Positions 1-11,572 of a stretch of DNA of 15,385 nucleotides are shown here, piece after piece (position 1 is the first letter of the stretch; every line of letters begins with the position of its first letter). Made by a program: the position numbers and the translations under genes. Source of the stretch: an uncultured bacterium (GTDB lineage: Bacteria > Oederibacteriota > JAJYGY01 > DAIDJD01); the NCBI GenBank assembly GCA_964521965.1, contig CAZFUM010000046.1:1-15385 (forward strand), written 5' to 3'. The notes under the pieces are model-generated. The model worked only from the letters and a program-made list of their open reading frames with translations. It was not told where the DNA came from and did not search any database.

Positions 1-720
1 CCCTATGTTTTCTTAGCTGCTGCCTTTGCCAGCCCCGTGGTTTTTCTCTCACCCACCCCCACCCCCTCTTATTCTGCCTCGCGCACCGCCACAGTTACTC
101 GGTCTGCCTCGCCGACATTTAGCGACAGCCCGACCCCTTCAGCGCCCACGGCGACGCGTTCTGCCACAGCAAGCGCCACTGAGTCAGCCAGCCCGTCGCC
201 TAGCCCCACGGCCAGCCCGACGCTTGCTGACAGCGCCACGGTTTCGCCTACTTTCACCGATGTGCCGGCTGGCAGCAGCCCGACGGCTACGCTCACAGCT
301 ACTTTAGTTGAAACTTATACCAACACCCCGACACCTAGTGTCAGCCCGACTGCCAGCGACACGGCGAGTCTTAGTGCAACGCCCAGCAACGTGGTCGTTG
401 GCCCTAGTCTGACCAACACCTTGGTCGCGCCCTGCTGCGTTAATGGCCAGGTGATTGATGCCCAGGCCGTGCCCAACCCTGCCTGGGGCTCGGCAGTCTT
501 GTTGGGCGTGAAGCTCGATGCCGCTGCATCTAAGATACGCGTGAGCATTTACAGCAGCGCGCACACATTAGTTTGGAAGGGAAGCTTTGAGAGCGGCTAT
601 GCCTTGGGTTGGAATAGCCTTGCCTTGCCACCCCTTTCATTGGCTTCAGGGTCCTACTACTTGGTGGTCGATAGCGGGGCTGCGCCCAAGAAAGTTGTAA
701 AAGCGTTTATTTATCGCTGA
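1..720 (+). CDS. Secreted Ser/Thr/Pro-rich protein with a T9SS-type (Por_Secre_tail / FlgD-Ig-like) C-terminal sorting domain. It is 5'-partial: frame 1 is open from nt 1, and the GTG at 37 is only the first in-window start.
   Basis: Frame 1 is open from the window start. It codes a long S/T/P/A low-complexity region. The C-terminal ~110 aa (nt ~388-720) reads VPNPA...IRVSIYSSAHTLVWKG...GWNSLAL...SGSYYLVVDSGAAPKKVVKAFIYR. It aligns by eye with the C-terminus of the 1246-aa protein (YPNPS...VTVFDLLGEKIAVWDKG...GWACWDLKN...PGLYYLMLVVDGKLIWGKMTIRP) and with the general T9SS CTD pattern (xPNP, alternating beta-strands, G.YY motif, basic C-terminus). Confidence 0.6.
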   Translation, partial: PYVFLAAAFASPVVFLSPTPTPSYSASRTATVTRSASPTFSDSPTPSAPTATRSATASATESASPSPSPTASPTLADSATVSPTFTDVPAGSSPTATLTATLVETYTNTPTPSVSPTASDTASLSATPSNVVVGPSLTNTLVAPCCVNGQVIDAQAVPNPAWGSAVLLGVKLDAAASKIRVSIYSSAHTLVWKGSFESGYALGWNSLALPPLSLASGSYYLVVDSGAAPKKVVKAFIYR

Positions 721-730
721 AATAGATTGA

Positions 731-1774
731 ATGAAAGCCAACAGCTACCTCATCTGCCCCAATCCCTTTAAAGGTACCTACACAGCCCTGCAGGCTGCGC
801 GCCTGCTTGCCCGCAAGGTCAGGCAAGCTGACCCTCAGGCGCGCATAAGCCTCTTGCCCCTAGCTGACGGCGGGCCTGGCACGCTCGAGGCAGTGCATGC
901 TGCCCGCGGAGGCCAGTGGCGCAAAGCGCGGGTGCGCGGGCCTTTGGGTAAGACTGTGAGGGCGCGTTGGCTTAAATTGGGGCGTATTGCTGTGATCGAA
1001 TCTGCCGAGGCGATAGGGCTGCAAGTTCTAAAAAGTGGCAGGGGTAACGCGAAGAGTTCGTTGCAAGCGAGCAGTTTTGGCTTGGGTCAACTTATCTTGG
1101 CGGCTCAGCGAGCTGGCTGTCGTGAGATTTGGATAGGATTAGGCGGTAGTTGCACGAGCGATGGCGGCAAGGGCATGGCCCAGGCTCTGGGCTGGCGTTT
1201 TTTGGATAATCAGGGTAGTGAATTAAAAAGTGGCGGAAAAAGTTTAGTGGACCTTGCCACCGCGCTTCCTTCTAATAAAAAATTATTTAGGACGCGTATT
1301 CACATTCTAAGCGACGTTAAAAATCAATTAAATGGCCCGCAAGGCGCGGCCCGAATATTTTCACCGCAAAAAGGCGCTGGGCCCCGTGAAGTCAAAATCT
1401 TGCAGCGGGGGCTGGCTCGACTCTCAAAGATTTGTGGGGGCAAGCAGGCCAAGCGGGCTGGTGCTGGCGCCGCAGGCGGTTTGGGTTATGGCCTGCTGGC
1501 GTTTGCGGGCGCGCGCATGGAGCCCGGGGCTGATACGTTGATGAAATGGGCGGGTTTTAGCGCGCGTTTAAAGCACTGTGATATTTTGGTGACGGGTGAG
1601 GGGTGCTTTGATCGCTCGTCCAGCATGGGCAAATTGCCATGGCGCTTGGCCCAAGCCGGGCTCAAAGCTAACAAAAAAGTCTGGATCGTGGCAGGCCAAG
1701 TGGCCTGGCGACCCAGACTTAAAGATTTGACTCTCATTGATTTGAAAATTAATCGCTATTTTGGCGCTCTTTAA
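731..1774 (+). CDS. glxK: Glycerate kinase (GlxK/GarK family, glycerate 2-/3-kinase).
   Basis: N-terminal ICPNPFKG (compare IAPDSFKGS), LADGGPGT, GLGGSCTSDGGKGMAQALG, GAGAAGGLGYGLL and LVTGEGCFDRSSSMGK are family-typical motifs. The 347-aa length is appropriate. Confidence 0.8.
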   Translation: MKANSYLICPNPFKGTYTALQAARLLARKVRQADPQARISLLPLADGGPGTLEAVHAARGGQWRKARVRGPLGKTVRARWLKLGRIAVIESAEAIGLQVLKSGRGNAKSSLQASSFGLGQLILAAQRAGCREIWIGLGGSCTSDGGKGMAQALGWRFLDNQGSELKSGGKSLVDLATALPSNKKLFRTRIHILSDVKNQLNGPQGAARIFSPQKGAGPREVKILQRGLARLSKICGGKQAKRAGAGAAGGLGYGLLAFAGARMEPGADTLMKWAGFSARLKHCDILVTGEGCFDRSSSMGKLPWRLAQAGLKANKKVWIVAGQVAWRPRLKDLTLIDLKINRYFGAL

Positions 1775-2087
1775 TTAATTTCAGTGCCTTGCGCTCGGCG
1801 ACAACTTTCTTCAGCGCAGCTTGGGAATTTTGATTGCGGTAGTTGTAGTCCAGCGAGTCGCGCCAAAGAAGTTCGGCTGTGCCGTATTTGTTGGCTAGAT
1901 ATGCCTCAAGGCCCCTTTGATAAAGTCGATCACTCTCTTTGCGTTCGTAGGCTGTTACTTTTTTGGGCGTTGCTTTGGCGACCGGTCTCGACTTGCTTGG
2001 ATAAATGTTCCGGCAACCTGCTATGCCCGGCGCTGCGCCTATAAAGACGGCAAGGGCAGCACCGCAGGCTAGCTGGTTAAATTTCAT
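1749..2087 (-). CDS. Small lipoprotein of unknown function, last gene of the minus-strand operon.
   Basis: The signal peptide MKFNQLACGAALAVFIGAAPGIAGC carries a lipobox (IAG|C). The rest is hydrophilic and rich in K/E/R, and looks helical. A 4-nt start/stop overlap with the upstream SPFH gene suggests translational coupling. Confidence 0.5.
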   Translation of the reverse strand: MKFNQLACGAALAVFIGAAPGIAGCRNIYPSKSRPVAKATPKKVTAYERKESDRLYQRGLEAYLANKYGTAELLWRDSLDYNYRNQNSQAALKKVVAERKALKLIKERQNSD

Positions 2088-2953
2088 TCTTCGTCTTTGC
2101 GCTTTCTGATCGGCAGCGGAGCCAGGCCAGCCAGGTCGCCAATCACATTCACGAGATCTTTGTCAGCGGGCAATACAATTTTAGAATTGTGAGAGAGTGA
2201 TTTTTCGACGGCTTCGATGCGGCGTAAGACTTGCGCGTTGCCCACAAAATACTTTTCGGCAGCTTCGTTTACCAGCGCAATGGCCGCGGCTTCGCCTTCG
2301 GCTTCGAGAATTCGCGCTGTCTTGACGCCTTCAGCTTTCTTGATGCTGGCGCGTTTTTCGCCATCGGCCTCGGTTTCATGCGCTGAAGCAAAGTCCACGG
2401 CGGCAATCTTTTCGTTCTCGGCCTTCACCACTTTGTTCATGGTTTCTTGCACATCTTTGGGCGGGTCGATTTCTTTGAGTTCGGTGCGCACAATTTCGAG
2501 GCCCCATTTGCCGGTCTCAATGGTAAGTATGCGGTGCAGTTCTTCGTTGATACGGCCGCGCTCGCTGTTGGCTGACTTGAGTGTCATGGTGCCAATGATG
2601 GCACGCAAGGTCGTGCGGGCTAAATTGACGATTTGATAGGCGTGGTTGTTGACTTGATATTGGCTCGACTTGACCGACTCTTGATCGTCTTTAACCTTGA
2701 AATAGACCTGGGCATCGACGCGCGCGTTCAAGTTATCGTTGGTGATGATTTCCTGAGGTTCGGCATCGACCATTTGTTCGGTGATGTTGACGCGATACAT
2801 ATGGTCAACAAAAGGGATGATCCAATGAAAGCCCGGGTTGGCGAAGTGAACAAAGCGACCAAAGCGCTCGATCAGGCCGCGATGGGTGGGGCGTAGTATT
2901 CGCACGCCCATTATAAAGAATAGAAATGCAAAGAATCCGATCGCTGCGTACAT
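2084..2953 (-). CDS. SPFH / band-7 (stomatin-prohibitin-flotillin-HflK/C) domain membrane protein.
   Basis: An N-terminal transmembrane helix (AAIGFFAFLFFIMGVRIL) is followed by an SPFH core (RGLIERFGRFVHFANPGFHWIIPFVD...NITEQ...ITNDNLNARVDAQVYFKV...). The C-terminus is an Ala/Glu-rich coiled-coil region, the typical stomatin-like topology. A GGAG lies 8 nt upstream of the ATG. Confidence 0.85.
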   Translation of the reverse strand: MYAAIGFFAFLFFIMGVRILRPTHRGLIERFGRFVHFANPGFHWIIPFVDHMYRVNITEQMVDAEPQEIITNDNLNARVDAQVYFKVKDDQESVKSSQYQVNNHAYQIVNLARTTLRAIIGTMTLKSANSERGRINEELHRILTIETGKWGLEIVRTELKEIDPPKDVQETMNKVVKAENEKIAAVDFASAHETEADGEKRASIKKAEGVKTARILEAEGEAAAIALVNEAAEKYFVGNAQVLRRIEAVEKSLSHNSKIVLPADKDLVNVIGDLAGLAPLPIRKRKDEE

Positions 2954-2977
2954 GGTTTGCTCCGTTGAGAAGGGCCG

Positions 2978-5900
2978 CTAGGGCCGGATGGTCATCTTAC
3001 CCCAGATCAGCTTGCCGTCCACGACTAGCATCAAATAATAGAGGCCAGGCGCGCAGGTGGCGCCGCTTGAATTTTTGAGGTCCCAACAGGCCCAGCCTTG
3101 ATTGGCCGAGCCTTGTCCTTTATCCCATACAGCTATTTTTTCACCTAGCAGGTCAAAGACCGTCACTTCAGCTTTTTGACCTGGCGCAAAGGCCACGCAG
3201 GCTCGGCCTAGGGCCTGGCTGCTGGGATTGGGATAAACCAAAAGCCCGTCGCTGACGCGGGGATAGGGCGTGGCGGTGGGGGGCACGATAGGCGTCTGGG
3301 TCAAGCTTGGGCTGGCAGTGGCGGTGGGCGTGATGCTGGGCGTGGGTGAGGCGCTGTAAGTACCCGTCACCGAGTGGGTGGGGCTTTCAGTCGCACTCGC
3401 GCTTTGTGTCGGGCTGCTGCTGCGGGTGGCGCTCGGCGTGGGTGTTGCGCTGCGGGTGGGGCTGGCGCTAAAGGTATAAGTAGCAGTGCGTGTGGCCGTC
3501 TGCGTGGCCGTGGGGCTAATGGTAGCAGTCTGCGTAGGCGTGGCCGTGGGCGTGGCAATGCCCACGCCATTGCCGCAGCCGTAAATCAAAACGCGTTGGT
3601 TGACGCTGTCAGCCACCCAAAGGCTCTCGGGCGCATTGGCTGCAACACTGCGCGGGCCATTGAGGCTGTCGCTGCCCACGGTGGCAGATAAGCTGGTGAA
3701 GCTGCTTTGGCCATAAATCAAATCTGCGTTAGGGTTGAATAAAGGGTTCCAACCCAGCACGCGTGAAAAGCCGCTGTCAGCTACAAAGAGGCGGCCCGAG
3801 CTATCGAGACCCAGTCCTTGGGGACTTGAGAGGCTTTGAGCCGAGGGCGTGAGCGAGCCCTGACCGGCCAAATTGGCGTTGAAATTCACTTGGCCTAGTA
3901 CGACAAACGCTGTCTGACTCAGGGGCGCCAAAGAATAGCCCATAACGCGGTGGTTGGCTGTGTCTGAGACCCAAAGGCGTGAGGCGTCGATCGCTACGCC
4001 CTGGGGAAAAGAGAGACTGGCTGAACTGGGTGTGCTGCCGAGATTGTTCAAGGCCGTACTGAATGAGCCACCCTGACCCCAGACTTGGTTGGCTGAAGTC
4101 GAAAGTGTAGGGTCAGAAAAATACAGCACTCGGTGGTTATTGCGGTCGGCAACCGCTAAGCGGCTAAAACTATCGCAGGCCACTTGCATAGGCAGATTGA
4201 GGCTATCGGCTGCTGCTGGGCCGCCGCGGTTAGCGCTGCTCGAGGTGAAATCTGCCTGACCCAGCAGCAGGTCAGCGCTGGCTAAGCTGGCCACCGGCGC
4301 GGTGAAATGCAAGATGCGGTGGTTACCGCTATCGGCCACCCAGAGCGCACCATTGTTAGGATCGACCGCTAGACCTTCGGGCCCGTTAAGGCTGTTAGCG
4401 GCTGTGCTGCCGCCTTGATTTGCGCTGCTGGCAGTGAAATTGACTTGTCCTAACACGCCATTGGCCGGCATGCCCATGATCATGGCTGATACGTCATTCC
4501 ATATCAGCACGCGGTGATGGTTTGTATCGGCCACATAGGCGCGGTAAGGGAAGCTGCGCGTGTCGATGGCGATGCCGCCCGGGTTGGATAGGCCCGCAGC
4601 GGTGGTTGCACCTGTGCCTGTGCTGCTGAGTGAGTTAACGCCGAGGGCGAGACAGCCAGGTTTGACCGCAGGCGGCACGGGTGTGGGTGTGGATGTGGGT
4701 GACGCTGTGTAAGTCGCTGTGACGGTAAATGTCGGCGAAATGCTAAAGGTTTCAGTGGCCGTGAGGGTGGCGGTGCGTGACACCGTGGCCGTGCGCGTGG
4801 GCGTGGCGCTGCGCGAAGACGTGGGGCTGATGGTGCCGCTATGGGTGAACGACGGGCTCAGCGTGGCGGTGATGCTTTCAGTAGGCGAAGCGCTATAGGT
4901 GGGCGATTCACTGAAAGTGCTTGACTCGGTAAAACTTGCGCTTTGAGTGGGGCTCGCTGTCTCGGTTTCGCTGGCTGTGGCGGTAGCCGTAGGAGTCTCA
5001 GAATAGCTTGGTGTAGGGCTGGCCGTCATGCTGCGCGTATAGGTTGGGGTACCGCAAGCAGGCTCTATGCTGGGGTAGGTGAAGATGACCGCTAAATTGG
5101 GGAAGAGAGCAGCTTGGTCGCAGCTCATTTCTAAGCCTGTGCGATTAGGGCAGTCAAAGTAGCTGCGTATGCCGGATGAGGCCGTGGCCCCAAAGCTGGT
5201 TGATGCCGTGTCAAAATACTGCAAGGTAATGCTGTTGAGAGTCTCAGAGAGGATAGCTTCAACCGTGATGGTATTAGCAGATTGATAGAGCTGCACGTTT
5301 TGCCATTGAATCACAGCCATGCGCAAAGGCGCGCTGCCCAGCACCGCGACGTGCACGCTGCCACCTGCGCTGGGGTCTAAGTCAGTCCAGAAGGGAGCCA
5401 CGATACACAAAGGCGAACCTGCGGCATTGAGGCAGTTGTCAGCATATTCAGTTGAATAGCCGCTAAAACGAATCAAGCCATTGGTTGAAATCGAGATGGA
5501 CTGATAAGTGGCCCCGTAAAACTTGAAATTAAAGCCCATGTCAAAATTCACGGCGCCGTCATCATTGTTGGGATCAAAATTCAGGGCTGGAGCGCTGCCC
5601 GATATATCTATCCAATTGAAGCTCGTTTCTTGCAGGGTGTAGCCAAAGACATCGCTCTTATAAATAGGCGTGCGCGTGGCGGTGGGGCTGGCGCTATAGG
5701 TTTGGCTGGCCTGGGGCGTTTCGCTGGGCGTTCCTGTCAGGGTGCCTGTATCGCTAGCGCTGGGGCTGGCACTGAATGTGGGACTGATGGTGGCAGTCTC
5801 GCTGGCGCTGGGGCTAGCTGTGCTGGTGGGACTAGGGCTAAAGGTGGGTGTGACCGTGGGCGAGGCAGTGAAGGTCGGGCTCTCGGTGGCGCTGGGGCTG

Positions 5901-6718
5901 GCGCTAAAGGTAGGTGTTTCGGTGGGGCTGGCGCTAAAGCTGGGGCTGGCCGAAAAAGTCGGGCTGATGCTAAAGGTCGGGGTGATGCTGCTCGTGGGTG
6001 ATTCAGTGGCTGTGAGGGTGCCCGTGCGGGTGGGTGTGCCGCAAGACGGCTCAGGCGAAGGATAGCTGTAACGAATGGCCAAGCTATCGGTCAAGAAAGG
6101 CTGTTGGCAAGCGATCGCTAGGCCACTGCGATTGGGGCAGTCAAAGTAGCTGCGCAGGCCAGCCACGGCCAGTGAACCTGAGCCATTGCCAGAAGTGCTC
6201 AAGTATTGAACCAGAATATCGTTGGCGCCCTCAAAGAGCACCATTTGAAACGTCACGTCACCCCCACCTACGCGCGCGGTCACGCTCGTGAACTGAAAAA
6301 TCGTGGCGCGGTTGGGGCTGATACCTTGAGTCTGATAGCGAATTTCGCCGCCTAGGCCCGGGTCTAAATCGATCCAATAGCCCGCGGCAATGCCATAAGG
6401 CGCCAGATTGGCATTTACGCAGCTGTTGCCAAAGTAGGCGCTCTGAACGCCAAATTGCAGATAGCCATTGGTAGCGACCGAAACCTTGCTATAGCCTGCG
6501 CCATAGAACTTAAAGGTAAATGGCAGGTCGATGAGCGTTGAGCCGTCATCACTGTTGGGCGCAAAGCTGGCCAAGGGAATGAGCGTGCCGCTCGTACGGA
6601 TGTCGTTCCAGAAGATGGGCGTGTCTTGTCCGACATAACCAAAAGTATCGCTGACGCTGACGGCCGCCAATCTCGCGGCGCATAGGCCGAGCGCAGCGAT
6701 GAGGGTCAGTCGCCTCAT
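2978..6718 (-). CDS. Giant secreted or cell-surface protein of 1246 aa. Order: signal peptide, NIDO-like domain 1, STP linker, NIDO-like domain 2, STP linker, six-bladed NHL-repeat beta-propeller, STP linker, T9SS-type C-terminal sorting domain.
   Basis: Signal peptide MRRLTLIAALGLCAARLAAVS. Two homologous ~205-aa domains each carry F.FKFYG..Y..(V/I)S(V/I).TNG..(Q/R)F and ...APFWTDLDPSAGG / APYG..AGYWIDLDPGLGG, which is the NIDO hallmark iaPfWaDvD..gG. Each also ends in a conserved SYFDCPNR(S/T)GL...C. Six (V/A)(A/S)D..N(H/Q)R(V/I) blades are present (YVADTNHHRVLIW, WVADSGNHRILHF, AVADRNNHRVLYF, WVSDTANHRVMGY, FVADSGFSRVLGW, WVADSVNQRVLIY), which is the NHL repeat. The C-terminal 86 aa begin YPNP and end ...GKMTIRP. 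Confidence 0.85.
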   Translation of the reverse strand: MRRLTLIAALGLCAARLAAVSVSDTFGYVGQDTPIFWNDIRTSGTLIPLASFAPNSDDGSTLIDLPFTFKFYGAGYSKVSVATNGYLQFGVQSAYFGNSCVNANLAPYGIAAGYWIDLDPGLGGEIRYQTQGISPNRATIFQFTSVTARVGGGDVTFQMVLFEGANDILVQYLSTSGNGSGSLAVAGLRSYFDCPNRSGLAIACQQPFLTDSLAIRYSYPSPEPSCGTPTRTGTLTATESPTSSITPTFSISPTFSASPSFSASPTETPTFSASPSATESPTFTASPTVTPTFSPSPTSTASPSASETATISPTFSASPSASDTGTLTGTPSETPQASQTYSASPTATRTPIYKSDVFGYTLQETSFNWIDISGSAPALNFDPNNDDGAVNFDMGFNFKFYGATYQSISISTNGLIRFSGYSTEYADNCLNAAGSPLCIVAPFWTDLDPSAGGSVHVAVLGSAPLRMAVIQWQNVQLYQSANTITVEAILSETLNSITLQYFDTASTSFGATASSGIRSYFDCPNRTGLEMSCDQAALFPNLAVIFTYPSIEPACGTPTYTRSMTASPTPSYSETPTATATASETETASPTQSASFTESSTFSESPTYSASPTESITATLSPSFTHSGTISPTSSRSATPTRTATVSRTATLTATETFSISPTFTVTATYTASPTSTPTPVPPAVKPGCLALGVNSLSSTGTGATTAAGLSNPGGIAIDTRSFPYRAYVADTNHHRVLIWNDVSAMIMGMPANGVLGQVNFTASSANQGGSTAANSLNGPEGLAVDPNNGALWVADSGNHRILHFTAPVASLASADLLLGQADFTSSSANRGGPAAADSLNLPMQVACDSFSRLAVADRNNHRVLYFSDPTLSTSANQVWGQGGSFSTALNNLGSTPSSASLSFPQGVAIDASRLWVSDTANHRVMGYSLAPLSQTAFVVLGQVNFNANLAGQGSLTPSAQSLSSPQGLGLDSSGRLFVADSGFSRVLGWNPLFNPNADLIYGQSSFTSLSATVGSDSLNGPRSVAANAPESLWVADSVNQRVLIYGCGNGVGIATPTATPTQTATISPTATQTATRTATYTFSASPTRSATPTPSATRSSSPTQSASATESPTHSVTGTYSASPTPSITPTATASPSLTQTPIVPPTATPYPRVSDGLLVYPNPSSQALGRACVAFAPGQKAEVTVFDLLGEKIAVWDKGQGSANQGWACWDLKNSSGATCAPGLYYLMLVVDGKLIWGKMTIRP
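2981..3238 (-). other. T9SS-type C-terminal sorting domain (Por_Secre_tail / FlgD-Ig-like beta-sandwich), residues ~1161-1246.
   Basis: YPNPSSQALGRACVAFAPGQKAEVTVFDLLGEKIAVWDKGQGSANQGWACWDLKNSSGATCAPGLYYLMLVVDGKLIWGKMTIRP has an xPNP start, a vydl.G..v pattern, a W.D..N..G core, sGvYyl and a basic C-terminus. Confidence 0.6.
3239..3583 (-). repeat. Thr/Pro/Ala/Ser-rich low-complexity linker 3 (residues ~1046-1160), between the NHL propeller and the C-terminal domain.
   Basis: Codes TPTATPTQTATISPTATQTATRTATYTFSASPTRSATPTPSATRSSSPTQSASATESP... It generates spurious ORFs 3367..3570 and 3374..3691. Confidence 0.6.
3584..4663 (-). other. Six-bladed NHL-repeat beta-propeller domain (residues ~686-1045).
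   Basis: Six evenly spaced (~55-60 aa) repeats match the ..(W/Y/F)V(A/S)D..N(H/Q)R(V/I)..(F/W/Y) NHL signature, as in the PknD sensor domain. Confidence 0.7.
4664..5041 (-). repeat. Ser/Thr/Pro-rich low-complexity linker 2 (residues ~560-685).
   Basis: Codes TASPTPSYSETPTATATASETETASPTQSASFTESSTFSESPTYSASPTES... with biased composition. Confidence 0.6.
5042..5656 (-). other. NIDO-like extracellular domain, copy 2 (residues ~355-559).
   Basis: Motifs FNFKFYGATYQSISISTNGLIRF, IVAPFWTDLDPSAGGSVHVA, TITVEAILSE...LQYF and SYFDCPNRTGLEMSC. Conserved positions are shared with copy 1 over the full length, so this is an internal duplication. Confidence 0.5.
5657..6028 (-). repeat. Ser/Thr/Pro-rich low-complexity linker 1 (residues ~231-354) with imperfect nucleotide tandem repeats.
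   Basis: Codes SPTFSASPS-type units. On the + strand, ggggctggcgctaaag-like units recur (for example near 5871, 5921 and 5939). The linker generates spurious antisense and alternate-frame ORFs such as 5742..6065. Confidence 0.65.
6029..6655 (-). other. NIDO-like extracellular domain, copy 1 (residues ~22-230).
   Basis: Motifs FTFKFYGAGYSKVSVATNGYLQF, LAPYGIAAGYWIDLDPGLGGEIRY, VTFQMVLFEG...LVQY and SYFDCPNRSGLAIAC. Confidence 0.45.
6656..6718 (-). other. Signal peptide of the giant protein (residues 1-21).
   Basis: MRRLTLIAALGLCAARLAAVS has a positive N-terminus, a hydrophobic core and an A-x-V-S cleavage region. Confidence 0.6.
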
Positions 6719-7953
6719 GGCGCCACCACGATCAAAATATCACTGGCAGGGCCTTCGACACCATCACTGCCTAGGGGACGCACAAAGAATTTATAGCTGC
6801 GGCCGCGTTCGAGGTTTTTTAATTTTTGCTGCGTCTTGTTGATGGGTTTGATATTCAACTTGTCGAGGTTGACGCCCCAGTCAGCGTAGAGATTATAGCC
6901 TTCGACGCGTTCATTGGCGTCTTGCCACCGCAGTCGAAGCCCATCCGGTTCGCGTTCGCTGCCCAGGCCATAGGGTGCCGAGAGGCTAGCTCCGCGTGGG
7001 CCGGGCAGTCTGGCGTTTTCAAATCGAAGGCTTAAGCCAAAGCGGTGTTGCGCTGGCAGGGGCCCCACGCTGAGCAAGGCATAGTTGAGTTCAAGGTTGG
7101 GCTCAAAGATGACGCCTGCACCCGCGCTTAGGCGCGCGTCTTCAGTAGTCAAGAAGCCTTGGGCGATGCCGAGACGCAAGAAATAGCGCGAGAGCTTTTC
7201 TGATTTGCTGATTGCATCAAAGTCAGTCGAGCGAAAACCAAATTCGAGCCCGGCCATGGCGCGGGCCTGGCCTTCGTTGGGCAAAGCTTGGGCATCGAGA
7301 CTGAAGCGAGTTAGGTTATTTAAAAATGCGAGGCTGATGCCACCTTGCACACGTAAGGCCAGTGGAAAGTTTTTTAAGTGGCCGTCGATACCTGTGCCCA
7401 TATTTTGCGCAGCCAGGCCCCAGCGCAGGCGGGGCAGCAAGGGTCCTTGCAGGCCGACATCAGCGGCAAAGGCCGAGGCCTCGCTGCCGGCTAGATTTTG
7501 GCGAAAGTATTTGAGTTCGAAACCTAAGCGCCAGCGGGGCACAATTTCAAAACCTAGTCCAAGGCCTAGGAGCAGGTCTTGGTCGCCAAATTCACCGAGT
7601 ATATTGCCGAAGCCGTCGGTGAGTTTATCTTGGTCAAAAAGGTAGGCGGCTCGAATGCCTAAGCCCACGCCTTGAGAGAGGCCTAAGCCAAGCGACAAAT
7701 TTGAAAATTGCGTGCCCAAGAAGCCTAGGCTGTGGCCCGCATTGAGGCTGGCGCCGCGCAGCTTGGCCAGGCCCGCAGGGTTTAAACCCAGCGAGCTTTC
7801 TTGGTCAGCCGCAGCCACCCAGGCTTGGCCCAAGCTCAAGGCTCGGGGCTGCAAGGGGTCAGCCAAAAAGAGGGCCCCGCTTTGGCCCAAGGCCAAGGCT
7901 TGCTGGGTCAAGCCAGCGTAAAGCCCTATAAAATAAAGTAGGAATCGGCGCAT
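6715..7953 (-). CDS. Outer-membrane beta-barrel protein with a C-terminal fibronectin type III-like domain. It may be a T9SS-associated barrel of PorP/SprF or PorQ type (tentative). It is the first gene of the minus-strand operon.
   Basis: Signal peptide MRRFLLYFIGLYAGLTQQALA. Residues ~22-320 are rich in Gly and aromatic residues with alternating hydrophobic beta-strand segments (GLGLGFEIVPRWRLGFELKYF, GISLAFLNN, FGLSLRF). Early in the mature part, QQ...LGLNPAGL is reminiscent of the PorP/SprF N-terminal NPA region. Residues ~333-412 (PDGLRLRWQ...YNLYADW...SYKFFVRPLGSDGVEGPASDILIVVAP) look like FN3. Its TGA overlaps the ATG of the giant gene (ATGA). Confidence 0.6.
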   Translation of the reverse strand: MRRFLLYFIGLYAGLTQQALALGQSGALFLADPLQPRALSLGQAWVAAADQESSLGLNPAGLAKLRGASLNAGHSLGFLGTQFSNLSLGLGLSQGVGLGIRAAYLFDQDKLTDGFGNILGEFGDQDLLLGLGLGFEIVPRWRLGFELKYFRQNLAGSEASAFAADVGLQGPLLPRLRWGLAAQNMGTGIDGHLKNFPLALRVQGGISLAFLNNLTRFSLDAQALPNEGQARAMAGLEFGFRSTDFDAISKSEKLSRYFLRLGIAQGFLTTEDARLSAGAGVIFEPNLELNYALLSVGPLPAQHRFGLSLRFENARLPGPRGASLSAPYGLGSEREPDGLRLRWQDANERVEGYNLYADWGVNLDKLNIKPINKTQQKLKNLERGRSYKFFVRPLGSDGVEGPASDILIVVAP

Positions 7954-7962
7954 GCCGAGCCT

Positions 7963-7991
7963 ATGCTAGGGCCCTTGTTGCTGGCTGTCAA
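7963..7991 (-). promoter_or_regulatory. Putative sigma70-type promoter for the minus-strand operon: -35 TTGACA (complement of 7986-7991), 17-nt spacer, -10 TAGCAT (complement of 7963-7968). It would leave a very short leader or leaderless mRNA.
   Basis: On the minus strand a perfect TTGACA hexamer sits 17 nt from TAGCAT (4/6 of TATAAT), ending ~9 nt before the ATG at 7953. No Shine-Dalgarno is present. This is a by-eye consensus match only. Confidence 0.3.
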
Positions 7992-8114
7992 GAAAGCCCA
8001 GCTTTGCAAGGTTTGACGCTATATATGAAGAGAATTGCGCAAAGAATCTGGGTTTAGCTGCAAAGTGTGAGGGCGCCTATTATTTGCTAAGATAAGGGAC
8101 TTTTCGAGGCATGA

Positions 8115-8666
8115 GTGACTGACGACGAGCTTTATCAAGGCATGTTGAACGGCGAAAAGCAGGCCTTTGATGAATTCTATGGGCACACCAAAGAGACGGT
8201 TGAAAAAGTCTGCGCCTATTTCTTGGGTGAAGACCCAGCCATGGTTCAGGCCGCCGTGGGCGCCTATCATCACGCCTTTGAACAGATCAAGGCCAAGAAA
8301 AAGCCCGAGCTGCCGCCCAAAGCTTGGATGTCGGTGCTGGCGGTGCGCGAATGTTTTCCTGTGATTGCCAAATACCGCGATGACTTTGATGCCCAGAGCC
8401 AGGCCATGGAGCTCATGGCCAGCCAGATACCTGCCTTGCAAGAGATCAGTCAGGACCCCAAAGAGCGCGTAGGCTTTATGGTTCGCGGTGAGGTTGAAGA
8501 CCTGCCTGATCCGCACCGCGAGTTTCTCTCGTTTTATGAGTTGCAAGGCCTCTCGTTTCTTGAGATCGCCAAGCGCCTGGGCCAGAGCTGGTCCACGGTC
8601 GTGACCAAGCTGCACGCGGGCCGCCAGGCCTTGGTGCGCAAAGTCAAAGAACAGTTTGGGGTTTGA
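8115..8666 (+). CDS. ECF-type RNA polymerase sigma-70 family factor with a GTG start.
   Basis: Region 2-like: LYQGMLNGEKQAFDEFYGHTKETVEKVCAYFLG...AVGAYHHAFEQI and AWMSVLAVRECFPVIAKYR. Region 4 HTH: LPDPHREFLSFYELQGLSFLEIAKRLGQSWSTVVTKLHAGRQALVRKV. The 183-aa length is typical of ECF sigmas. Confidence 0.85.
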   Translation: MTDDELYQGMLNGEKQAFDEFYGHTKETVEKVCAYFLGEDPAMVQAAVGAYHHAFEQIKAKKKPELPPKAWMSVLAVRECFPVIAKYRDDFDAQSQAMELMASQIPALQEISQDPKERVGFMVRGEVEDLPDPHREFLSFYELQGLSFLEIAKRLGQSWSTVVTKLHAGRQALVRKVKEQFGV

Positions 8667-9544
8667 GTGTGGCTGAGCTGAACGTCGAACAAGCCCAAAA
8701 GCTGGCCCGTGATTTCCTCACCGGGCGGGGCGGTCCTGCTATTAGTGAAGACGCTCGCCGAGCCATGCAGGGCGATGAGCAGTTGGCTCTCGAGTTGCTT
8801 CAGCAGATGCAGACGGCGCTTGACGAGATAGCGCCCGCGCCCTTCACGCCGGACCAATGGCGCGAGGTTGATGCCCGTGTGCGCAGTTTGATCGCGCCCC
8901 TGGCCAAGTCTCGCTTTGGATTCATTGGCCGATTCTTTAGCAAGCTCTTTAGCCGCAAGCCTAAAGAAAAGGTTGAAGAGTCGAGTAGCCGCGTCAAGCG
9001 TCGGGGTGGGGTAGCCCCGGTCGTCGCGCCTGAGCCAACGGGACTTGTCGCCGCAAACGTGGATGGCATGGAAGAGATGGCGCCCATTGCCGCGCCGGCT
9101 GCCCTGCCTGAGGTTCCTTCCGGGGCCGCCGCCGCTGTCGTCGTTGCTGAGCCGCCGCCTGTCAAAGCCAAGCGGGTTCTGCCGGTTAAAAAAATTGCCC
9201 TGACTTTGGGCGCCTTCTTAGTACTGGGCGGCTTGGGTTATGGCGTCATGCTCTTGCACCCTATGGATCGCTGGCGCGCTTGGCGTGCCAGCAAAGTGGT
9301 CGTGCCGCTGCCCAGCCCTGTGCCGACCCTGGCGCCTCAGCCCACGCTGCCCCCCACGCCTCAGCCTAGCCCTACGCCGAAAGGCCCGCCTGCGCGAGGT
9401 TTTGATAAACCAGCCTACGATGCGCTGCCCGCCGAGTTGCCGCCGCAAACACCTCAGCCTGCAGGCGTAGCCTTGCATTTGAAGGGGCTTGAGGCCCAAG
9501 ACTCGACAGGGCAAAATCGTCTGCCTTTACCCGCCCCCCAATGA
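8663..9544 (+). CDS. Putative anti-sigma factor: single-pass membrane protein with a Pro-rich extracytoplasmic C-terminus, translationally coupled to the ECF sigma gene.
   Basis: The TTG start overlaps the sigma stop by 4 nt (GTG at 8669 is an alternative). A ~190-aa cytoplasmic region is followed by one transmembrane helix (IALTLGAFLVLGGLGYGVMLL) and a proline-rich tail (PLPSPVPTLAPQPTLPPTPQPSPTPKGPP...). Position and topology are typical of ECF-cognate anti-sigma factors, but no recognisable ASD motif was confirmed. Confidence 0.5.
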   Translation: MSVAELNVEQAQKLARDFLTGRGGPAISEDARRAMQGDEQLALELLQQMQTALDEIAPAPFTPDQWREVDARVRSLIAPLAKSRFGFIGRFFSKLFSRKPKEKVEESSSRVKRRGGVAPVVAPEPTGLVAANVDGMEEMAPIAAPAALPEVPSGAAAAVVVAEPPPVKAKRVLPVKKIALTLGAFLVLGGLGYGVMLLHPMDRWRAWRASKVVVPLPSPVPTLAPQPTLPPTPQPSPTPKGPPARGFDKPAYDALPAELPPQTPQPAGVALHLKGLEAQDSTGQNRLPLPAPQ

Positions 9545-10606: not shown

Positions 10607-11572
10607 ATGGCCCTCGCGGCGCCCAGCCTAGATCAGGCATTGATCGATGACATCGCCCGGCTTAAGGCCGAGCGCCATGCCGTCATCTTGGCGCACAATT
10701 ATCAGAAGCCTGAGATTCAAGAGATCGCAGATTTTGTGGGCGATTCATTAGGCTTATCCCGCAAGGCTCAAAGCAGCCAGGCTGACGTGATTGTTTTTTG
10801 TGGTGTGCATTTTATGGCTGAAACGGCCAGCATTTTGAATCCTAGCAAGAAGGTCTTGTTGCCTGACCTGCTGGCGGGTTGCTCGATGGCCGATATGATT
10901 AGCGCTGATATTTTACTCGATCTTAAAGAGAAGAATCCTGGCGCTTTGGTCTGCAGCTATGTCAATACCACGGCCGAGATTAAGGCCGAGAGCGACATTT
11001 GCTGCACATCAAGCAATGCCGTCGAAGTGGTCAAGAGCCTGCCTGCTGATAAGCCTGTGATTTTTGTGCCGGATAAGTATCTTGGCGCTTGGGTGCAAAA
11101 GCAGACAGGCCGCGACATGATTCTTTACGATGGCTGGTGCCCCGTGCACATGGAACTCAAACAGCACGGAATTGCCCAGCTCAAGAAAGAGCATCCCCAG
11201 GCTTTGGTGGTGGCCCATCCTGAATCGCCGCTAGAAGTTTCAAGCCAGGCCGACGTGGTCTGTTCGACCGAACAGATGGTGCATTTTTGCCGCGAGTCAA
11301 AAGACAACGAATTTATCATTGCCACCGAGACCGGTATTTTGCACAAACTCAAGCGCGAGAACCCCGAAAAGCGTTTCTACGCCGCCAATGACCTGGCCAT
11401 CTGCCCCCACATGAAGATGAATAACCTTGAGCGCGTGCGTGAGTCTTTGCTGACCCTGAAGCCCGAGGTTAAGGTGCCCGAAGTCATTCGTGAGAGGGCC
11501 TGGGCCCCCATACAACGCATGCTTGATTTGAATTTGCCTTATCAAGAAACTTTTGTGGGGTGCAAGTGCTAA
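10607..11572 (+). CDS. nadA: Quinolinate synthase NadA.
   Basis: ILAHNYQKPEIQEIADFVGDSLGLSRKA...IVFCGVHFMAETASILNPSKKVLLPDLLAGCSMAD, YDGWCPVHM and LAICPHMKMNNLERV match NadA signature regions, including the three spaced Cys motifs for the [4Fe-4S] cluster. Confidence 0.85.
   Translation: MALAAPSLDQALIDDIARLKAERHAVILAHNYQKPEIQEIADFVGDSLGLSRKAQSSQADVIVFCGVHFMAETASILNPSKKVLLPDLLAGCSMADMISADILLDLKEKNPGALVCSYVNTTAEIKAESDICCTSSNAVEVVKSLPADKPVIFVPDKYLGAWVQKQTGRDMILYDGWCPVHMELKQHGIAQLKKEHPQALVVAHPESPLEVSSQADVVCSTEQMVHFCRESKDNEFIIATETGILHKLKRENPEKRFYAANDLAICPHMKMNNLERVRESLLTLKPEVKVPEVIRERAWAPIQRMLDLNLPYQETFVGCKC

Follow-up and report, generated by a model that had tools for sequence, protein, structure and literature searches.

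The contig CAZFUM010000046.1 of an uncultured bacterium, which is 15,385 bases long and is called the window here (coordinates refer to it unless another contig is named), carries on its minus strand a gene at 2978..6718 for a multidomain protein of 1246 residues. This protein, predicted to be secreted and named below the NIDO/NHL protein, contains in its N-terminal half two copies of a domain that is very probably related to animal NIDO by true, though distant, homology and lies on the border of what the Pfam model of that family covers. Further downstream it possesses an NHL propeller and a C-terminal domain that resembles the sorting domains of type IX secretion systems (T9SS), and its gene overlaps an upstream gene for a relative of the outer-membrane proteins PorV and PorQ. 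With moderate confidence, we regard the product as a Sec-exported, surface-displayed, multivalent binding protein of an adhesin-like kind, sorted by a T9SS-like route via the co-encoded PorV-like partner. The gene itself is an ordinary member of a large known family, and the more interesting thread is the conserved pair of a PorV-like gene and its cargo in an unstudied phylum.

The architecture was derived from the list of open reading frames (ORFs), the translation and domain scans. From the N- to the C-terminus, it includes a signal peptide, a first NIDO-like domain, a linker, a second NIDO-like domain, another linker, the NHL propeller, a third linker and the C-terminal sorting-type domain, all on the minus strand. 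The putative Sec-type signal peptide (6662..6718, residues 1–19, MRRLTLIAALGLCAARLAA followed by VSVSD) was read by eye from the translation and appears to combine a basic N-terminus, a hydrophobic core and an end of the A-x-A type. NIDO-like copy 1 (6020..6661, residues 20–233) is separated from NIDO-like copy 2 (5030..5665, residues 352–563) by a Ser/Thr/Pro-rich linker of 118 residues (5666..6019, residues 234–351) that consists of 25% Thr, 25% Ser and 16% Pro. Two other Ser/Thr/Pro-rich linkers, recognized by translation and composition, flank the six-repeat NHL beta-propeller (3560..4678, residues 681–1053), one on its N-terminal side (4679..5029, approximately residues 564–680) and one on its C-terminal side (3269..3559, residues 1054–1150). 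The protein ends with a domain of about 96 residues of the T9SS type-A/FlgD-Ig-like kind (2981..3268, residues 1151–1246), which was assigned from its own subthreshold scores together with the profile matches of its relatives. The predicted Sec signal peptide at the N-terminus and the sorting-type domain in the last 96 residues match the layout of T9SS type-A cargo. Tandem DNA repeats are present within the linkers and are trivial.

Relation of the duplicated domain to animal NIDO

The two copies, each of about 212 residues, share 42% identity across 210 residues (BLASTP, E 1e-61), a likeness that by this comparison is far above chance level. A preliminary description of the window had already noticed two internally duplicated domains at 5042-6655; this interval corresponds exactly to residues 22–559 of the 1246-residue ORF, with the minus strand left unstated there. 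The motifs and the cysteine pattern that it quoted were all found in both copies, namely F.FKFYG...TNG...F, (A)PFW/GYW.DLDP..GG, SYFDCPNR(S/T)GL..(S/A)C and EP(S/A)CGTPT. Four cysteines are conserved in each copy (C100, C194, C204 and C226 in copy 1; C429, C523, C533 and C555 in copy 2), and copy 2 has one additional cysteine, C438. Stabilization of the NIDO-like modules by disulfides is plausible. The DCPN(R/H/Q) and EP.CGTPT cysteine motifs are confined to four proteins of the small clade to which this protein and its orthologues belong.

The Pfam NIDO model (PF06119) comprises 186 positions and has a gathering threshold of 25 bits. The full-length protein passes this threshold narrowly, with 25.5 bits (E 1.6e-5) for an alignment that lies in copy 2, whereas the isolated copy 2 scores 24.7 bits and the isolated copy 1 gives no match even at E<=10. 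The HMMER alignment is limited to profile positions 2–56 of the 186, or 2–51 in the case of the full-length protein, and does not span the whole model. This Pfam score is borderline on its own, and therefore a wider family was assembled for testing. An alignment of 30 full-length family domains (A2) was obtained, whose profile matches copy 1 with E 9e-68. Pfam NIDO is matched individually by 23 of these 30 members, with a best E-value of 2.1e-10, and other Pfam families are matched by none of them (E<=0.01). A better match to another family, which the preliminary description had named as grounds for revising the assignment, was therefore seen for no member.

The family profile was further compared by hhalign with the N-termini of human SNED1 and NID1, the sequences of which were entered by hand. 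They score 218 bits (SNED1) and 207 bits (NID1) against the full Pfam NIDO model, and the SNED1 helix segment is the same as in the text of the published paper (bioRxiv 10.1101/2020.07.27.223107). The A2 profile aligns with the NIDO region of SNED1 with 98.1% probability (E 1.2e-13, 124 columns) and with NID1 with 90.8% probability (E 1.2e-6). The F.F.(F/Y)G motif sits just N-terminal of the start of the Pfam NIDO model, yet it is common to the animal proteins (PFPFFG in SNED1). With this evidence from Pfam, from the 23 matching members and from the hhalign alignment to SNED1, the NIDO identity suggested in the preliminary description is borne out as distant homology.

Two observations weigh against this assignment, the lack of any Pfam NIDO match for copy 1 and the behaviour of the C-terminal third of the domain, which aligns to animal NIDO with low confidence, the hhalign alignment spanning approximately the first two thirds. 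One could suppose that the NIDO likeness arose by chance or as a convergent motif and that the domain is an unrelated bacterial beta-sandwich. Such an explanation would agree with a Pfam match that covers less than a third of the profile and hardly reaches the cut-off, with the silence of copy 1 and with the N-terminal fragment of RemZ of Flavobacterium johnsoniae, a clear family member that has no Pfam NIDO match either. We consider it highly improbable, since the significant alignment to the animal NIDO region extends over 124 columns, NIDO is matched independently by 23 of the 30 members with some relatives reaching 33–74 bits and with no competing Pfam family, and the F.F.(F/Y)G motif falls inside the animal/bacterial alignment despite its location outside of the Pfam boundary.

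As aligned by hhalign, SNED1 and the bacterial family are homologous from a point about 25–30 residues before the Pfam NIDO model, and the shared stretch includes the segment DDG...PFPFFG (SNED1 residues ~45–70). Because the homology starts upstream of the Pfam model, the structural NIDO domain in animals may be larger than its Pfam/SMART definition.

Copy 2 was modelled by AlphaFold2 with the 30-sequence alignment as an all-beta fold of about 13 strands (predicted local distance difference test, pLDDT, 93.2; predicted template modelling score, pTM, 0.90); this run superseded a model based on three sequences, which had a pLDDT of 46 and was unusable. A Foldseek search of the copy 2 model against the PDB returned no match at E<=1e-3. 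As a weak lead, the modelled fold leans to a carbohydrate-binding-type sandwich. Among solved-structure sequences, no chains resembling the animal NIDO sequence were found, and according to the SNED1 preprint there is no NIDO crystal structure available (bioRxiv 10.1101/2020.07.27.223107).

Abundance and partners of the domain in bacteria

A HMMER profile built from both copies and one close homologue was searched exhaustively against 1.84 billion cluster representatives. A total of 25,501 representatives match at E<=1e-3; their number falls to 11,163 with a limit of E<=1e-10 and to 730 with one of E<=1e-30. It should be noted that word-indexed searches heavily under-report this family, returning one match with copy 2 and 30 short unnamed matches with the profile. 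The best 150 relatives are mainly very large proteins with up to about 15 copies of the domain, three copies being the commonest arrangement. A scan with one genome per species provided 218 confirmed relatives, a set biased by two peptide patterns, and 79 loci were kept. By label, these 79 loci belong to the Ignavibacteria class (40), Marinimicrobia (11), Bacteroidetes or Longimonas (8), Anaerolineae (2), and Fibrobacteraceae, WOR-3, Syntrophaceae, Rickettsiales and Pseudomonadota (one each), with 13 unclassified. Their domains demonstrate 26–37% identity to the present domain over the matched segment.

Among the 79 genome ORFs bearing a NIDO-like domain, 52 end with a C-terminal domain of the present type, and most of these encode C25, S8 or C11 proteases from Ignavibacteria and Bacteroidota. 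Pfam analysis of eight such ORFs revealed the combinations Peptidase_C25, fn3, NIDO and Por_Secre_tail/FlgD_ig; Peptidase_S8, fn3, NIDO and Por_Secre_tail; and Peptidase_C11, NIDO and Por_Secre_tail. In these protease-type relatives Pfam NIDO scores 33–74 bits, over its threshold. Because of the 25,501 representatives and the 52 of 79 ORFs, NIDO-like domains in bacteria are not rare but abundant, and it is usual for them to be combined with a sorting domain of the T9SS type. The preliminary description had called bacterial NIDO proteins rare, which does not hold, and the architecture of the present protein unusual, which is correct only for the combination of NIDO with NHL. This combination was found in the present protein and its orthologues P0026 (996 residues, one copy) and L081 (two copies, on a frameshifted contig), and it is absent from the remaining sampled proteins (181 were sampled in total) and from all 79 genome ORFs. 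Overall, the family is very large and functionally uncharacterized, and its members usually serve T9SS-type cargo as accessory modules, for instance in proteases or in adhesins resembling RemA/RemZ. Specific to the present lineage are the union of NIDO and NHL, the four-cysteine motif, and the overlapping upstream gene of the PorV/PorQ-like type with an fn3-like tail.

The NHL region belongs to Pfam NHL (PF01436), which it matches in six stretches with 113.6 bits and E 1.5e-33, and the propeller named in the preliminary description is thus recovered, with scores of 101–114 bits and six repeats. Its closest solved relatives among PDB sequences are six-bladed NHL propellers, namely those derived from the PknD sensor and those of SOQ1 and TRIM71, suggesting that the region resembles non-enzymatic binding propellers. 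An extracellular enzyme with a catalytic propeller of the lactonase, lyase or arylesterase-like type, to which the NIDO-like modules are accessory, is improbable. This possibility is raised by weak matches of the NHL region to SGL/gluconolactonase (E 3.4e-5), arylesterase (E 2e-6) and phytase-like families, as well as by the relatives, in which the NIDO-like domain mostly accompanies enzymes (proteases). However, the arylesterase match, although it passes the cut-off (28.3 versus 21.3 bits), spans one blade of about 33 residues (residues 91–123, profile positions 47–79 of 86), the SGL and phytase-like matches are under their cut-offs, no catalytic motif was identified in the propeller, and the nearest solved propellers bind a ligand, RNA or protein. 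An enzymatic NHL region was rejected as the main interpretation on the basis of these partial or subthreshold enzyme matches and of the binding propellers being nearest.

Sorting-type domain, PorV/PorQ-like partner and proposed function

The C-terminal domain was studied with an alignment (A3) of the present domain and ten relatives from other NIDO-family proteins. FlgD_ig is matched by ten of these 11 members, Por_Secre_tail by five and CHU_C by three. The A3 profile detects FlgD Ig domains (E ~3e-9) and the C-terminal domain of PorU (E 3e-7), and it has a weak match to PG93 (E 0.0094). Its matches to gingipains (E 0.02–0.2) and, taken together with these, to other T9SS C-terminal domains (E 0.02–0.7 overall) are not significant. 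The domain follows the pattern YPNP...(F/Y)D..G...WD..G....G.Y(Y/F) and is located at the extreme C-terminus in all 20 carriers among the best 150 relatives and in 52 out of 52 carriers among the genome ORFs. By these profile comparisons, it is a member of the type-A/FlgD-Ig-like superfamily. A second ORF of the window (1-720, plus strand), which is open at the left contig end, codes for a Ser/Thr/Pro-rich stretch followed by a C-terminal domain of about 90 residues (VPNP...IRVSIYS...GWN...GSYYLVV). This ORF has no Pfam or NCBIfam match; its C-terminal domain aligns with A3 by hhalign (78.7%, E 1.7e-5), and the contig seems to encode here a further cargo protein of this type.

Immediately upstream of the NIDO/NHL gene, and on the same strand, lies a gene (6715..7953, minus strand) for an outer-membrane protein of 412 residues, which matches the PorV/PorQ family of NCBIfam and carries an additional fn3-like domain at its C-terminus. 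The stop codon of this gene and the start of the NIDO/NHL gene overlap (ATGA). As judged from its profile matches, the protein is a divergent PorV/PorQ relative rather than a named orthologue. The fn3-like segment (E 9.6e-4) spans approximately the last 90 codons, after a strand, HRFGLSLRF, that resembles a barrel ending, and it is kept in the orthologue on contig L080; the tail would face the periplasm if the barrel is even-stranded. Just 5' of the PorV-like gene there is a promoter-like site, TTGACA-17-TAGCAT (7963..7991, minus strand), which is a pattern match only, with 10 of 12 positions in a consensus scan.

The same gene pair surrounds the orthologue P0026 (contig L080), where the PorV-like protein is 43% identical to the present one (E 6e-97) and a single base is shared by the two genes. 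It was also found on contig L081, which in addition has a glycerate kinase neighbour in common. Two independent metagenome contigs have thus kept the pair of NIDO-NHL and PorV-like genes. When metagenomes were scanned with the PorV-like protein alone, no relative was detected, and an alignment-based rescan gave five loci. Two more distant contigs have genes ending in a sorting-type domain that alternate with PorV/PorQ-like genes: in L084 (2235-6758) a cargo gene at 2235-3548 is followed by a PorV-like gene at 3535-4584, a cargo gene at 4669-5721 and a PorV-like gene at 5694-6758, and L085 (2-1596) shows the same alternation. This organization suggests tandem arrays of cargo/shuttle pairs. In the published T9SS framework (PMC12618676), PorV recognizes type-A C-terminal domains, whereas genes for type-B cargo frequently show genetic linkage to those of their cognate PorP/SprF shuttles. 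The present gene pair appears to couple a barrel of the PorV/PorQ type to a private cargo, one whose domain is type-A-like.

These observations are consistent with the following scenario for the adhesin-like protein. The Sec signal peptide would direct the product to the periplasm, where the four conserved cysteines of each NIDO-like module would form two disulfides. A type-IX-like sorting route would then recognize the C-terminal type-A/FlgD-Ig-like domain, with the PorV/PorQ-family protein encoded upstream acting as a dedicated shuttle or anchor for the NIDO/NHL protein. On the surface, the three long Ser/Thr/Pro-rich linkers would act as spacers between the cell and the domains, with the NHL propeller nearer to the cell and the two N-terminal NIDO-like beta-sandwich modules placed distally, where they would bind a ligand, possibly a glycan. 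A more definite version takes the NIDO-like modules to be carbohydrate-binding modules. The protein would then fasten the cell to a surface of polysaccharide or glycan, and in the protease relatives the module would bring the enzyme to a substrate that is decorated with glycans; we hold this possibility only tentatively. The domain in the relatives sits between catalytic and sorting domains, as accessory binding modules typically do, and RemA is called a cell-surface lectin, at least in the title of the paper cited as reference 28 in PMC10994853; on the other hand, no sugar-binding residues could be mapped.

Several points weigh against the proposal of a binding protein that is displayed on the surface after T9SS-like sorting. 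The C-terminal domain scores under the cut-offs of both relevant families, with 18.6–18.9 bits versus 27 for Por_Secre_tail (PF18962; E 0.0018–0.0024) and 16.2 bits versus 23 for TIGR04183, and it falls outside the curated T9SS type-A membership; the sorting domain announced in the preliminary description is present at the C-terminus but remains below curated thresholds. The upstream protein aligns with PorV_fam (NCBIfam NF033709) over profile positions 2–326 of 326 with E 1e-22, and its 81.1 bits are below the cut-off of 90; for PorQ (E 1.9e-13), the equivalog score is 50.2 bits against a cut-off of 220. None of the core T9SS genes (SprA/Sov, PorK/L/M/N) is located on the 15-kb contig, which has the PorV/PorQ-family gene only, and no description of T9SS was found for the probable source lineage, candidate division FCPU426. 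Finally, the function of NIDO in animals is not known (bioRxiv 10.1101/2020.07.27.223107), so that ligand binding is read from the architecture alone.

The same thresholds, the absence of core T9SS genes from the contig and the uncharacterized source phylum would also fit a C-terminal domain that is purely structural and FlgD-Ig-like, with no secretion signal, beside a FadL/PorV-like barrel that serves as a transporter or scaffold unrelated to type IX, the protein being periplasmic or otherwise exported. It also points in this direction that, at the level of the family, the C-terminal domain matches FlgD_ig best, in ten of 11 members versus five for Por_Secre_tail. We nevertheless consider this explanation unlikely. 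The domain occupies the extreme C-terminus in every carrier counted above, the Ignavibacteria and Bacteroidota relatives exceed the Por_Secre_tail threshold, the A3 profile matches genuine T9SS C-terminal domains (that of PorU and, weakly, PG93, with gingipains not significant), and PorV-like genes paired with genes for this C-terminal domain recur in independent contigs.

As an extension of T9SS-like sorting, one may speculate that in this little-known lineage PorV/PorQ barrels bearing a fn3-like tail in the periplasm have given rise to a range of dedicated shuttles or anchors, each encoded beside its own type-A-like cargo, the NIDO-NHL protein with its putatively disulfide-locked NIDO variant being one such surface adhesin; we put this forward as a doubtful possibility. 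If true, type-IX-like sorting would extend to an unstudied phylum, and cognate pairing, so far described only for type-B cargo with PorP/SprF in Bacteroidota, would no longer be limited to that case.

The remaining genes of the window provide some context. A SPFH/Band 7 gene (2084-2953, minus strand) is located downstream of the NIDO/NHL gene after a 24-nt gap, and it overlaps by 4 nt with an ORF of 112 residues (1749-2087, minus strand) that has weak similarity to BamD/TPR lipoproteins. The operon may extend further, because contig L080 likewise has a TPR/BamD-like ORF directly after its NIDO-NHL gene. Between the PorV-like and NirDL-like genes there are overlapping ORFs at 8019-8615 (minus strand), 8115-8666 (plus strand) and 8663-9544 (plus strand), none of which has a Pfam or NCBIfam match; the last one codes for a Pro/Ala-rich product of 293 residues with one hydrophobic segment. 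No tRNA or Rfam features were found in the window. The product of the nadA gene (10607-11572, plus strand) is 64–84% identical to a tight metagenomic group, the only specifically named member of which is from a candidate division FCPU426 bacterium (80%); one match labelled as "bacterium" shows 74%, and other named matches show at most 60%. The source lineage is probably candidate division FCPU426, a poorly sampled candidate phylum. An exact 50-mer taken from the window has no counterpart among the species-representative genomes, and looking up the protein's contig by exact sequence gave no record.

Comparison with known systems

The present analysis corrects the notion of rare bacterial NIDO proteins and places the NIDO-homologous domain among the accessory modules that are common in secreted proteins of bacteria, above all in T9SS-type cargo; the searched library yielded no paper that connects NIDO with type IX secretion. 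Since a confident structural model is obtainable from the bacterial family, it offers an easy bacterial route to what this fold binds. The conserved operon with a PorV/PorQ-like gene provides a testable handle on cargo-specific sorting outside Bacteroidota.

Animal NIDO domains (Pfam PF06119, SMART SM00539) are known from nidogen-1/2, SNED1, alpha-tectorin, mucin-4, fly Mesh and worm DEX-1. Like the bacterial domain, they are extracellular and mainly composed of beta-strands, and they are often N-terminal within big multidomain extracellular proteins; the core motifs F.F.(F/Y)G, NG.i.F, (A)PFW.D(l/v)D..G.vyY and TFQ.vL are common to both. In contrast to the bacterial domain, the animal one has a helical insert of about 20 residues (PAMLRRATEDVRHY in SNED1), whereas the present subfamily has four extra conserved cysteines. 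The partners are also different, with EGF, AMOP and vWD in animals and T9SS-type C-terminal domains, proteases or NHL repeats in bacteria.

The NIDO-bearing T9SS-type cargo of Ignavibacteria, Bacteroidota, Fibrobacteraceae and WOR-3 shares with the present protein the domain family, secretion, multidomain organization and a sorting domain at the extreme C-terminus. Those proteins combine a protease with a single NIDO domain right before the C-terminal domain and lack the four-cysteine motif, whereas the NIDO/NHL protein has no protease and is composed of two N-terminal copies, an NHL propeller and long Ser/Thr/Pro-rich linkers. Another similarity is to the gliding adhesins RemA and RemZ of F. 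johnsoniae. PDB entry 8gl6, chain D (deposited as "RemA"), is the sole solved-structure entry with the domain according to the profile (E 2.8e-23, residues 45–198). RemZ is a type-A T9SS substrate with a C-terminal domain recognized by PorV, and only this C-terminal domain is resolved by cryo-electron microscopy (PMC10994853). RemZ/RemA-type adhesins are large surface proteins with the same domain family at the N-terminus (~45–198) and a type-A T9SS C-terminal domain. RemZ differs in having a single copy, with no significant match to the domain-family profile in the rest of the protein; its N-terminal domain is unresolved in the cryo-electron microscopy structure, which accordingly yields no experimental fold for it. 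Nothing in the present data points to a gliding role for the NIDO/NHL protein.

Finally, the gene arrangement is reminiscent of the pairs of type-B cargo and PorP/SprF in F. johnsoniae (PMC12618676). In both cases, the cargo gene is genetically linked to one that encodes a shuttle-type beta-barrel of the outer membrane, and in the present family this pairing is kept across contigs. The two systems differ in that the barrel described here belongs to the PorV/PorQ family and has an fn3-like tail, the C-terminal domain of the cargo is of the type-A/FlgD-Ig-like kind, and the organism lies outside Bacteroidota.

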